Source of the DNA: a virus
Lineage: Duplodnaviria; Caudoviricetes
IMG/VR virus record: IMGVR_UViG_3300021514_000002
Span: 160,001 to 224,000 of that record
DNA length: 64,000 nt
Strand: one strand, 5' to 3'
Part shown: one piece after another, positions 61,606 to 64,000 of the stretch
How the letters are laid out: every line of letters starts with the position of its first letter
Position numbering within the stretch: position 1 is the first letter of the stretch
The notes under the pieces: model-generated
What the model saw: only the letters and a program-made list of their open reading frames with translations
The model's database searches: none
What the model was told of the DNA's origin: nothing
Made by a program: the position numbers and the translations under genes

Positions 61606-62292
61606 TTATAATCCTAATTCAGTCACGTATTGTTTCACGATTTCTACCTCGTTTGGTTGTTTGTTGAATCTTCCTGTCCAATAATCTGGATTTACGATAG
61701 TTTCCAGTACTATTCTTTCTTCCGAGGAAGTGGTATTAATATAGAATTTTGCGAATTTCTTACTATTTAATAACATCCATGGCGATAACCTGCGTTGATG
61801 TAATAATTGTATCACTTCATTTGGCGTTAATATATTAAATACTTCGCTTACATCTACTTCCGCCGCATCTGCGATATCAAATAGAGTTTTTATTGTTATT
61901 TTGACCAGTTCCCTAGTTGGCAATTTTCGTGTAATATATTCAAGATATTTTCGATATGCTGTGTCACTTGACCAGTAATTAGGATCTATACCCGAACCTA
62001 CCATTAATTCTATAAATACGCCAATATCTGGTAATTGGGTTTTTTTCACAAATTTTGTGAAATTGAAAAATGTAGTGAAGTACCTAGATTTCTTAAAAGC
62101 CATTGCTGACGAGGGCACGCTTTTATGTTTCACTTTCATCCAAGATTTATAATAATTCCACGCAGCTTGACCTGCAACCGATTTAAAATCTTTCTCGCGA
62201 ATCATTGCAGTACATTCATGTCGTAAAAATCTTGCTTCGGTTGTAAATGTTGCCCTGCAAAAATTACACCTATGTAAAATTTCTCTTGTCAT
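61606..62292 (-). CDS. Conserved jumbo-phage protein with N-terminal zinc finger
   Basis: HRCNFC..F......RHEC. Confidence 0.7.
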   Translation of the reverse strand: MTREILHRCNFCRATFTTEARFLRHECTAMIREKDFKSVAGQAAWNYYKSWMKVKHKSVPSSAMAFKKSRYFTTFFNFTKFVKKTQLPDIGVFIELMVGSGIDPNYWSSDTAYRKYLEYITRKLPTRELVKITIKTLFDIADAAEVDVSEVFNILTPNEVIQLLHQRRLSPWMLLNSKKFAKFYINTTSSEERIVLETIVNPDYWTGRFNKQPNEVEIVKQYVTELGL

Positions 62293-62293
62293 A

Positions 62294-62773
62294 TTATGCC
62301 TGTCTCGTCTTTAATTCCCTTTTTATTACAGTGATTTCTTGCGCTTGCCTGCCAAGTTGTTCTGCAAAAGAAAGTATATCGTCATTTGAGATTACGGGCA
62401 AGACATCTAATGCATCAATAGTATTATAACTAAAAAATTCTTTTATAACTCCAACAACTTTTGGCGTTGAAGTCGTTTTTTTGCTTTTTGTCTTATTGAA
62501 CTTATATCGCTGAGTTTTACCTGACGCGCACAATGTTATAAGATTAACTAACAATTCTTTATGTTTGCCCAAATTAAAAACGAACGGATTAACTAATTCG
62601 TTTAAAAAATAAACCTGACGTGCATCGTCCGTACCAGACATCCATCTCATTAAAATTAATGGACTGATCTCTTTGGCTTGATCTTCGGTAAGCGATTTAT
62701 AAAATTTTCTGTTCTTCCTACTTAGATTAGGAAGAACTTCATTAAACAAATCTAATTTATATTGTTTAACCAT
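62294..62773 (-). CDS. Clamp-loader small subunit (T4 gp62-like)
   Basis: PLILMRWMS...LNE.VN...KH..L....RY.F...VIKEFFSYN..DA...L. Confidence 0.6.
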   Translation of the reverse strand: MVKQYKLDLFNEVLPNLSRKNRKFYKSLTEDQAKEISPLILMRWMSGTDDARQVYFLNELVNPFVFNLGKHKELLVNLITLCASGKTQRYKFNKTKSKKTTSTPKVVGVIKEFFSYNTIDALDVLPVISNDDILSFAEQLGRQAQEITVIKRELKTRQA

Positions 62774-63101
62774 TTGCTGCGTTTATCCGACGGTTACAGA
62801 ATTTGCATTCCACGTAACCATCTTTTTGAACCAAATGCTCATAAGGATGGATACAGTCTTTAACCATTACTTGTCGCAATGCTTGTATTTCATCAAGCAT
62901 TGGTTGTTTTTCATCCTTAATAATATTAAGGATTTTTTCTTCAATCGGTCGAAGCTTTTCAATTAACTTTTCCATATTAGCAAGTTTACGCTTCCACGCA
63001 GTTTTTTCACTACGATCTGCATGGTTCGATATGCTCTCGAATAAATTACGTTCTACCGCCTGTTCTGGTGTTTCATTTTCTGGTTTTTTTCTTCTAGCCA
63101 T
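62766..63101 (-). CDS. Hypothetical protein with C-terminal C-H/CxxC
   Basis: CIHP...ECKFC. Confidence 0.7.
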   Translation of the reverse strand: MARRKKPENETPEQAVERNLFESISNHADRSEKTAWKRKLANMEKLIEKLRPIEEKILNIIKDEKQPMLDEIQALRQVMVKDCIHPYEHLVQKDGYVECKFCNRRINAANG

Positions 63102-63298
63102 TATTTTATTAACTCCTCAGAAACGACATCTTTTTCATGACAAACCATATTCAATTTTATATTAATTTCGGTTGGTAACCCAAATAACGTGATTGATGAA
63201 GCTACTGTTTCAAATTCTGTTATTGTTCCTTCAAGATTGTGTTGTTCTAAAAATACAATCAAATCTTCAGGTGTTGTTGGCATTATCATGCTTTTCAT
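63101..63298 (-). CDS. Small hypothetical protein
   Basis: Coupled to upstream ORF. Confidence 0.55.
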   Translation of the reverse strand: MKSMIMPTTPEDLIVFLEQHNLEGTITEFETVASSITLFGLPTEINIKLNMVCHEKDVVSEELIK

Positions 63299-64000
63299 TT
63301 TACTAACTCCATTGCATCATCAAATTTGTTCACTCTAAGTTCTTTGATGAATTGTTTTCCAATATCAGAATCTTTATCAACTATCATACTTGGTTTAGTT
63401 TCAAGTTGTGCTTTTAGAACCTCATATTGAAGTTTCGTTCTTTCCATGTAAGATTCTGGAACCCTCATGGCATCAGAAACTTTGCGTTGGAAATATTCAA
63501 GATCATCTAACATACCAAGACCTTGACCACATGGTAATGTTTCAACAAGTGAACCCCGCCCTTCTGGATTTGATGAAGAAATGAAATCTTCTGTTATCCA
63601 TTTACCATCACGGACAACTTTTGAGGTCATTTGTGGTATATACGGTGCATAAAAATATCCAGTATCTAATTGTTTCGGTTCTGTTTCAAAATCAAACACG
63701 AGTTGTTTTTCACAATTTTCTTCGTCTATATTAAGCAACTCTACCCCTAATGACTTTATGTGAATTGGTATGTGAATGAATTCTGCGGCATCATTTGGTT
63801 TAATAGTAACATCAACGTGCAATTTATTGTTATCAATACGACTAGGCGTATTATTGGTTTCATCACAAACTACCGAATAGTCAACGATGCTACTGTTTGA
63901 AAGAATATTAGTAATATCACATCTCACCCGCTCGTGGGTTAATGAATCATTTGGTTTGTCTATGTGGACTGCCAGTCCCGCTTGAATGTTTCTTTTAAGA
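63295..64000 (-). CDS. Mosaic ORF (5'-truncated by window): tail-sheath C-terminus + major-capsid motif + portal segment
   Basis: DYSVVCDETNNTP.RID (gp18); DTGYFYAPYIP (gp23); EGRGS.VETLP.G..LG.LDDL.YF...RVP.SY (gp20); frame open to base 64000. Confidence 0.75.
   Translation of the reverse strand, partial: LKRNIQAGLAVHIDKPNDSLTHERVRCDITNILSNSSIVDYSVVCDETNNTPSRIDNNKLHVDVTIKPNDAAEFIHIPIHIKSLGVELLNIDEENCEKQLVFDFETEPKQLDTGYFYAPYIPQMTSKVVRDGKWITEDFISSSNPEGRGSLVETLPCGQGLGMLDDLEYFQRKVSDAMRVPESYMERTKLQYEVLKAQLETKPSMIVDKDSDIGKQFIKELRVNKFDDAMELVK

Follow-up and report, generated by a model that had tools for sequence, protein, structure and literature searches.

Why would a phage carry, among its replication genes, a reading frame pieced together from parts of its own tail sheath, capsid and portal proteins? 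The question is raised by one end of a 64,000-nucleotide (nt) stretch (hereafter the window; G000:C1:160001-224000) of the IMG/VR record IMGVR_UViG_3300021514_000002. This 363,531-bp record of a deep-sea virus, G000, is, judged by its capsid, that of a T4-superfamily jumbo phage; its nearest relatives by the same protein are XacN1 (a Xanthomonas phage, 61% identity in amino acids (aa)), Xoo-sp13, Stenotrophomonas CM1/RAS14 and Ralstonia RsoM2USA. A preliminary description of the window had noticed an open reading frame (ORF), here called P0001, in which fragments of sheath, capsid and portal are joined and which stays open to the window edge. In the whole genome P0001 is complete. It runs on for another 602 nt past the edge to a length of 435 aa (G000 223298-224602), and the window holds its 3′ part on the minus strand (63295..64000; codons 202-435, that is the last 234, plus the stop), with 201 codons upstream lying outside. 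The three segments had been read correctly, but the minus-strand orientation, the 201 upstream codons with their LGVSSRG motif and the C-terminal tag had been missed.

Our analysis indicates that P0001 is a translated, selected and fast-evolving accessory protein. As to its role, the explanation that we prefer, with a probability of roughly 0.4 and on the basis of sequence comparison, is that it may serve as a polyvalent mimic, occupying factors that recognise conserved features of virion proteins.

Copied segments of virion proteins

A copy of the tail-sheath C-terminal domain occupies aa 185-293 of P0001, of which aa 202-293 lie in the window (63724..64000, minus strand). It was matched by Pfam Phage_sheath_1C (PF17482) over aa 186-282 (E 1.6e-9, profile positions 2-103 of 104) and by the PHROG tail sheath family over aa 185-284 (E 2e-22). 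In the sheath protein of the same genome (618 aa, G000 318067-319920, adjoining the tube gene), the last 112 aa were matched with 42% identity (hidden Markov model (HMM) E 1e-35), and the T4 equivalent is gp18 residues 538-653. The sheath C-terminus of the preliminary description was thus confirmed. P0001 itself is not a sheath protein, since it showed no match to the N-terminal and central domains (Phage_sheath_1, PF04984) at E <= 10 and its gene lies away from the tail tube.

Next to the sheath copy lies an acidic linker, EExCExQxxFDxE (window 63679..63723, minus), which is conserved across family members in alignments A1 and A2. It is followed by a major-capsid (Gp23 family) motif that begins DTGYFYAPYIP (aa 309-331, window 63610..63678, minus). 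The earlier assignment of this motif was upheld by the genome and not by Pfam. Gp23 (PF07068) alone remained below its cut-off (E 0.006-0.011, 15.6-16.5 bits against 24.4 bits, 23 of 376 profile positions), and with such a score P0001 does not qualify as carrying the HK97-fold domain of this family. On the other hand, the best two matches to the motif genome-wide were both Gp23-family genes, at homologous positions: the major capsid protein (MCP; aa 438-457, 14 of 20 residues identical) and the gp24-like protein (aa 318-337). The hexapeptide YAPYIP occurs in this genome only in P0001 and the gp24-like protein. The T4 equivalent is gp23 ~aa 439-460.

The portal segment (aa 335-390, window 63433..63600, minus) proved as well founded as had been claimed. 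Pfam Portal_T4 (PF07230) matched it above the family cut-off (E 6e-12), and the identity to aa 332-382 of the phage's own portal (567 aa, G000 303769-305469) is 67% in aa and 75% in nt; in T4 it corresponds to gp20 residues 324-385. Only positions 254-308 of the 433 in the profile were matched, and the full clip-stem-wing-crown portal fold is not present. According to published portal domain limits (PMC4493910), the segment comprises the inner clip/clip strands, the channel loop and stem helix alpha7, and excludes the exposed clip tip.

A fourth piece lies upstream of the window (aa ~60-90, minus). This segment, NKPISLGVSSRG, contains the heptapeptide LGVSSRG, which genome-wide was found only in P0001 and in the ORF at G000 306331-306975, the prohead protease (Peptidase_S77 E 6e-26; T4 gp21, PDB 5jbl, E 3e-13). 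The T4 equivalent is the gp21 strand GV-A-SRG in PDB 5jbl. The alanine of that sequence is probably an engineered active-site change, in which case the LGVSSRG strand would be the nucleophile strand of the protease. The likeness is limited to this strand of ~25 aa: Pfam S77 gave no match in any of six family members, and the S77 protease fold with nucleophile Ser and catalytic His is absent from P0001.

Each of the copied pieces is the signature motif, the most conserved one, of its virion protein family. The remaining C-terminal module (aa 391-435, window 63298..63432, minus) is specific to the mosaic family; it has two predicted helices, and no source for it was found in the phage's own genome apart from the tag described below.

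Structure prediction with AlphaFold 2 (AF2) on alignment A2 gave a mean predicted local distance difference test (pLDDT) score of 62. The only confident parts were a coiled coil (aa 156-184, preceding the sheath domain and outside the window) and the sheath domain (aa ~190-285, pLDDT ~90). Confidence was low for the protease motif, the capsid motif and the GRGS...GQGLG portal core, and three helices were predicted with moderate confidence for the C-terminal 70 aa. When the confident part was compared by Foldseek, it aligned with the T4 and KP1 sheath proteins (~31% identity) and then with T4 gp25 (PDB 5iw9, E 0.018, TM-score normalised to target 0.40). For the whole model Foldseek gave no match at E <= 0.001, since confidence is low over much of its length and the sheath domain alone aligns. 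In this model the motifs outside the sheath domain would lie in flexible stretches, as expected for displayed linear motifs.

A shuffled family at a fixed insertion site

A search of 5.8 billion proteins yielded five homologues with 32-67% identity. Four of them, P0003-P0006, contain both Phage_sheath_1C and Portal_T4, and P0002 has the portal match only. Searching 1.8 billion cluster representatives with a profile brought in ~10 further members, from JGI, ENA and Logan assemblies. The combination of segments, for which the preliminary description had proposed to look in other genomes, therefore does recur, in P0003-P0006 and ~10 more. The ~15 diverged homologues come from independent metagenomes, with the frame open over 300-530 codons. 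In addition, an independent vent run of 2018 holds contig pieces identical to parts of P0001 and to its clamp-loader junction, and marine runs hold variants, one with unlike sequence in place of the sheath part and one without the 65-aa ORF that follows P0001; this read evidence covers the ORF in pieces, with none of the independent contigs running through all of it.

Searches of P0001 against Pfam, PHROGs and PDB sequences returned only the virion families from which the pieces derive. Described anti-defence families gave no sequence or profile match in Pfam and PHROGs, and full-text literature searches retrieved neither such a mosaic nor a phage-encoded decoy built from virion-protein fragments. 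The family thus appears to be new, being found in no protein-family library or paper searched.

In alignment A2 the modules are a leader (NQNFLDEFDKFLP or MLDELEKMLK); a protease motif, an 'FW' module with coiled coil and a sheath domain, each of them optional; the acidic linker; a capsid motif, likewise optional; the portal segment; and the tagged C-terminal module. The core is made up of the leader, the portal segment, which most members have, and the tagged C-terminal module, which nearly all have. Protease, sheath and capsid pieces have been gained, lost and reordered across the family. The sheath module is missing from P0002, P0025 and P0008, and the capsid motif from P0004; P0028-P0030 (115-145 aa) are made of leader, portal and C-terminal module alone. 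In P0125 the portal segment stands ahead of the sheath module, and P0050 and P0057 have the sheath and lack the portal.

The 'FW' module, which P0001 lacks, is a beta-rich stretch of ~95 aa (...NPxPxDTIxIS..GSIxV..DGxI...GDI..DEAAKxFWDxISYxAP) carried by P0003-P0006, P0025, P0026, P0008, P0033, P0158, P0050 and P0057 (alignment A4). Neither the phage's own genome nor PHROGs nor the PDB sequences gave a significant match to it, and it may likewise have been copied from some virion protein.

The mosaic gene, judged by the ratio of non-synonymous to synonymous substitution rates (dN/dS), is under purifying selection. This ratio was 0.40 between P0001 and its counterpart in contig L016 (dS 0.61) and 0.39 between P0003 and P0005 (dS 0.44), and it was lowest, at 0.20-0.24, in the C-terminal module, the most constrained part of the mosaic. 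By comparison, adjacent genes in the same genome pairs have dN/dS of 0.06-0.15 and 93-96% identity, against 65% identity for the mosaic, which at non-synonymous sites evolves ~8 times faster than its neighbours. The whole sheath module has been lost from the mosaic between near-identical genomes. Among six members aligned in A1, GVSSRG and the portal motif GRGSxVETLPxGQxLG...DLEYFxRKV are invariant, and both are nearly identical in the resident genes.

On average, the family's portal segments resemble the real portal of this phage as closely as they do one another. They have derived residues in common (DDLEYF versus SDLEYF), suggesting one capture followed by constrained divergence.

The position of the gene is equally consistent. 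P0001 begins 10 nt past the stop of the clamp-loader large subunit gene (PHROG phrog_168, E 1.5e-65), where an AAGAG-like ribosome-binding site is present, and it lies between this gene and that of a gp62-like small subunit; its placement among replication genes by the preliminary description is therefore correct. The mosaic gene directly follows the clamp-loader gene in seven other contigs (L005, L016, L017, L018, L019, L026 and L029). Downstream, its stop overlaps (ATGA) the 65-aa ORF (window 63101..63298, minus), whose orthologue in relatives is an untagged ORF of 68 aa and which is paralogous to the tagged 77-aa ORF that they carry. Then comes a conserved 111-aa zinc-ribbon protein (window 62766..63101, minus), whose gene is found 3′ of the mosaic, directly or after one or two small ORFs, wherever a contig reaches that far; the short contig L020 shows this as well. 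The 111-aa gene of XacN1 and Xoo-sp13 stands directly after the clamp loader with nothing between, and thus marks the downstream edge of an insertion. Given this empty site, the mosaic gene and one or two small ORFs, in G000 the 65-aa ORF, are a lineage-specific insertion into a conserved operon. The gp62-like candidate for the clamp-loader small subunit (159 aa, window 62294..62773, minus) is supported by PHROG phrog_225 (E 0.002) and by conserved synteny. From this setting P0001 looks like a replication-operon gene, and it is probably made together with early or middle replication genes. A scan of the locus for promoters and terminators gave counts not above those in shuffled sequence.

Several further observations concern this region and its relatives. 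Behind the gp62-like gene, at window 61606-62292 (minus), is a conserved protein of 228 aa (phrog_11058, unknown function) whose N-terminus has a C2H2-like zinc finger; throughout this phage group it comes next after the gp62-like gene, which is the place of regA in T4. In one relative (L026:3840-5879, IMGVR_UViG_3300009537_000559), the clamp-loader large subunit is 679 aa long, with an intein-like insertion of ~370 aa after Walker A, and is followed by a minimal 137-aa mosaic of leader, portal segment and tagged module. The related 21.5-kb contig L005 encodes at 546-1082, ~9 kb upstream of its mosaic gene, a homologue of Acb1, a known anti-defence family of phosphodiesterases acting against the cyclic oligonucleotide-based antiphage signalling system. 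Elsewhere in G000, two tandem untagged ORFs of ~115 aa (236006-236362 and 236332-236673, both minus; L025) were matched, with genome-wide E of 6e-6 and 2e-3, by the part of the mosaic profile that covers the sheath C-domain. They are closer to the mosaic than to the real sheath and adjoin a thymidylate-synthase-like ORF, and by these matches they are possibly further stand-alone copies of the sheath domain. A 'hypothetical protein' of RsoM2USA that had come up as a candidate mosaic was rejected; the match lies at its C-terminus, so it is most likely an unannotated sheath gene of that phage.

A C-terminal tag with several carriers

P0001 ends in KFDDAMELVK (window 63298..63327, minus). We described this tag as an aromatic residue, D, E or N, any residue, A or S, M, any residue and two aliphatic residues, followed by 0-3 residues. 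Used as a regular expression, this pattern ends 11 ORFs of G000, one of them a doubtful 42-aa ORF, versus 1.35 expected from shuffled sequences. Five of its residues (F427, D428, D429, M431 and E432) do not vary among the members in A1. Homologues of P0001 carry the tag too, as do adjacent 77-aa ORFs of relatives; the latter, directly 3′ of the mosaic, end in GDFDAAMEIIK (L005:11548-11781, L017:1795-2028 and L018:1573-1806). G000 keeps only their untagged 65-aa paralogue.

Three of the tagged ORFs are mini-genes at G000 295.9-296.9 kb (tags AFDRAMEIV, AFERAMEII and KFDDAMNIV). One tagged mini-protein matches aa 287-318 of the phage's own portal (E 5e-4), directly adjacent to the portal stretch copied in P0001. 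The other three mini-genes (295.6-296.6 kb) gave no significant BLAST alignment with the phage's own protease, sheath or capsid.

The tag was also seen on a structural protein. The gp24-like capsid vertex protein (G000 323019-324308, minus; L024; Pfam Gp23 E 4e-53) has an acidic C-terminal extension of ~50 aa which ends in AFESAMKILD, and the Xoo-sp13 orthologue is without this extension. A scaffold-like acidic coiled-coil protein, encoded between the protease and capsid genes (L006:334-1311; G000 307159-308136), ends in NKAQLDYLRKLAGIN, whose helix LDYLRKLA bears a loose resemblance to the tag (NKFDDAMELVK).

We considered that the tag might be a clamp-binding motif and rejected this: the DNA polymerase of this phage ends in ...SLLTDSLLDF and not in the tag, and a search with Pfam DNA_PPF found no sliding-clamp gene in G000. 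The tag could instead be an address label or a docking peptide.

Mimicry and competing explanations

The preliminary description had suggested a decoy for defence sensors, a dominant-negative inhibitor of competing phages, or a recombination relic. The first two both still fit the sequence data, because the gene evolves fast relative to its neighbours, gains and loses modules and belongs to a lineage-specific insertion, with the signature motifs retained. In the mimic that we tentatively favour, one flexible chain would present, in copied form, those parts of the phage's virion proteins that are least free to mutate: the protease nucleophile strand, the folded 'handshake' C-terminal domain of the sheath, the capsid motif and the inner-clip/channel-loop/stem-helix segment of the portal, set between the conserved N-terminal leader and the tagged C-terminal module. 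It would bind and occupy recognising factors before or during the build-up of the real late proteins, so that their action would be blunted; host pattern-recognition defences and proteins of rival or parasitic elements are candidates. When P0001 is expressed, what it binds, which factors it targets and what the tag does are inferred here. This reading is favoured because the gene behaves as in an arms race, its modules are individually dispensable, and one copied piece, the protease strand, is buried in the active site, where it is sensible as a recognition target and not as an assembly interface. The tagged mini-protein that copies the adjacent portal stretch and the Acb1 homologue on contig L005 are in keeping with it. 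Bacterial sensors do target conserved core virion proteins, some of them (Lit, CapRel) via short motifs (bioRxiv 10.64898/2026.01.04.697583).

Several points weigh against the mimic. A fragment with the recognised feature could trigger a sensor instead of blocking it. Avs sensors read whole folds via broad interfaces (bioRxiv 10.64898/2026.01.04.697583), which short motifs may not mimic. The copied portal segment lines the DNA channel and subunit interfaces and is not the exposed clip tip, which fits interference with assembly at least as well, and the occurrence of the tag at the end of a genuine capsid vertex protein points to the head rather than the cytoplasm. Avs4 and CapRel serve as example sensors only; nothing ties P0001 to them. 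A broader proposal, which we regard as doubtful, is that a marine/vent jumbo-phage lineage practises 'virion-motif display', in which shuffled copies of the least mutable portal, sheath, capsid and protease pieces, fused or in mini-genes and bearing one tag, would blind several host pattern-recognition defences at once.

A different explanation for the same pieces is that copied polymerisation interfaces (sheath handshake domain, portal clip strands and stem helix, a capsid strand) cap or poison growing assemblies. The targets could be the phage's own virion proteins, with premature polysheath, polyhead or portal aggregates being prevented, or those of a co-infecting related phage or satellite, in a dominant-negative manner. 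This is possible but unlikely in our estimation. The sheath piece amounts to an entire C-terminal domain, C-terminal strand included, with a confidently predicted fold, and its closest structure after sheath proteins, T4 gp25, is a separate domain on which sheath subunits dock and which initiates their polymerisation. Truncated capsid proteins that block assembly are known elsewhere, for example Ty1 p22 and Fv1. The portal piece spans the clip strands, the channel loop and stem helix alpha7, and the tunnel loop, whose first residues fall within it, has been reported to aid dodecamer assembly (PMC4493910). However, a factor for the phage's own assembly should be core-like, yet the mosaic is absent from XacN1 and Xoo-sp13, its modules are lost between near-identical genomes, and its non-synonymous rate is ~8 times that of its neighbours. 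The protease motif, a buried strand, offers no interface, and no selectivity for foreign targets is visible, as the motifs differ about as much from one another as from the phage's own proteins.

That the tag, possibly together with the leader, loads tagged proteins into the prohead for injection appears improbable, even if it would be compatible with a decoy role after injection. Precedents for capsid loading exist in the T4 capsid-targeting sequence (CTS), the C-terminal tail of the HK97 protease and the C-terminal cargo-loading peptides of encapsulins. Loading is suggested by the presence of the tag on ~10 otherwise unrelated ORFs, its position at the end of the lineage-specific extension of the vertex protein, the loosely similar terminal helix of the scaffold-like protein and an L-x-E-type site in P0001 (FLPE, aa 14-17) like those cleaved by the T4 prohead protease. 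The leader (NQNFLDEFDKFLPE or MLDELEKMLK) is conserved and in P0001 has L-P-E at aa 15-17, a site that varies across the family. Against loading, the gene lies in a replication operon away from the head genes, the tag is unlike the tails of protease and scaffold, and a payload of virion-motif copies would be left unexplained. A recombination relic, an assembly chimera or a DNA-level element, such as a gene-conversion donor for virion genes, is essentially excluded. At the nucleotide level P0001 does resemble the resident genes for portal (76% over 155 nt) and sheath (73% over 108 nt), which would speak for such an origin, but the frame is intact in ~15 diverged homologues at a fixed position with dN/dS of ~0.4, independent samples hold the gene, so it is neither chimeric nor a unique ORF free of selection, and leader and C-terminal module are conserved as protein. 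As for gene conversion, the longest exact runs in common with the resident genes are 8-17 nt, too short for efficient homologous exchange.

Bacterial immunity senses conserved core virion proteins. Were P0001 indeed a mimic, it would represent a new route of escape that leaves those proteins unaltered, in which a fast-evolving, module-shuffling chain mimics the phage's own proteins, and the choice of copied pieces would tell which portal, sheath, capsid and protease epitopes bacteria monitor. An action on assembly would instead make it the first factor in phages to cap several targets, or to inhibit them in a dominant-negative manner, in such a way. Either way, the shared tag would define an address or docking system with ~10 clients in one genome, and the homologues show that the system is a conserved, shuffled family at a fixed insertion site.

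Among systems that can be compared with P0001, the tagged mini-genes of the same genome have the tag in common with it. They are separate genes of 80-120 aa, each with a tag, whereas P0001 is one 435-aa chain with a single tag, 70 kb away, and the portal-like mini-protein and P0001 copy adjacent parts of the portal (aa 287-318 and aa 332-382). The folded part of P0001 resembles T4 gp25 and TssE of the type VI secretion system, in which the sheath handshake-domain fold is free-standing. However, gp25 is a conserved baseplate component from the tail module, whereas P0001 is an accessory gene in a replication operon, and its sheath domain, unlike gp25, can be recognised in sequence as copied from the phage's own sheath, and some family members do without it. 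Lit (which senses the Gol peptide of T4 gp23), CapRel (capsid) and Avs (portal, terminase and capsid) illustrate that hosts sense conserved pieces of late virion proteins, the kind of recognition that a mimic could exploit. These are host sensors with their natural triggers, whereas P0001 is phage-encoded, and its capsid motif (~aa 439-460 in gp23) is well outside the Gol region, which we take to be aa 93-122 of gp23.

Capsid-loading peptides resemble the tag in being short, portable and terminal, and in being shared among unrelated proteins of one virus, one of them a shell protein. The tag is unrelated in sequence to the T4 CTS, the HK97 protease tail and the encapsulin peptides, and loading by it would be a proposal from its sequence; the T4 CTS is N-terminal (~10 aa, ending in (L/I)-x-E) and is cut off by gp21. 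Finally, Ty1 p22, Fv1 and enJS56A1 are cases in which a self-derived capsid fragment interferes with particle assembly. They are eukaryotic and each stems from a single protein, whereas P0001 samples up to four virion proteins and is encoded by the virus itself.

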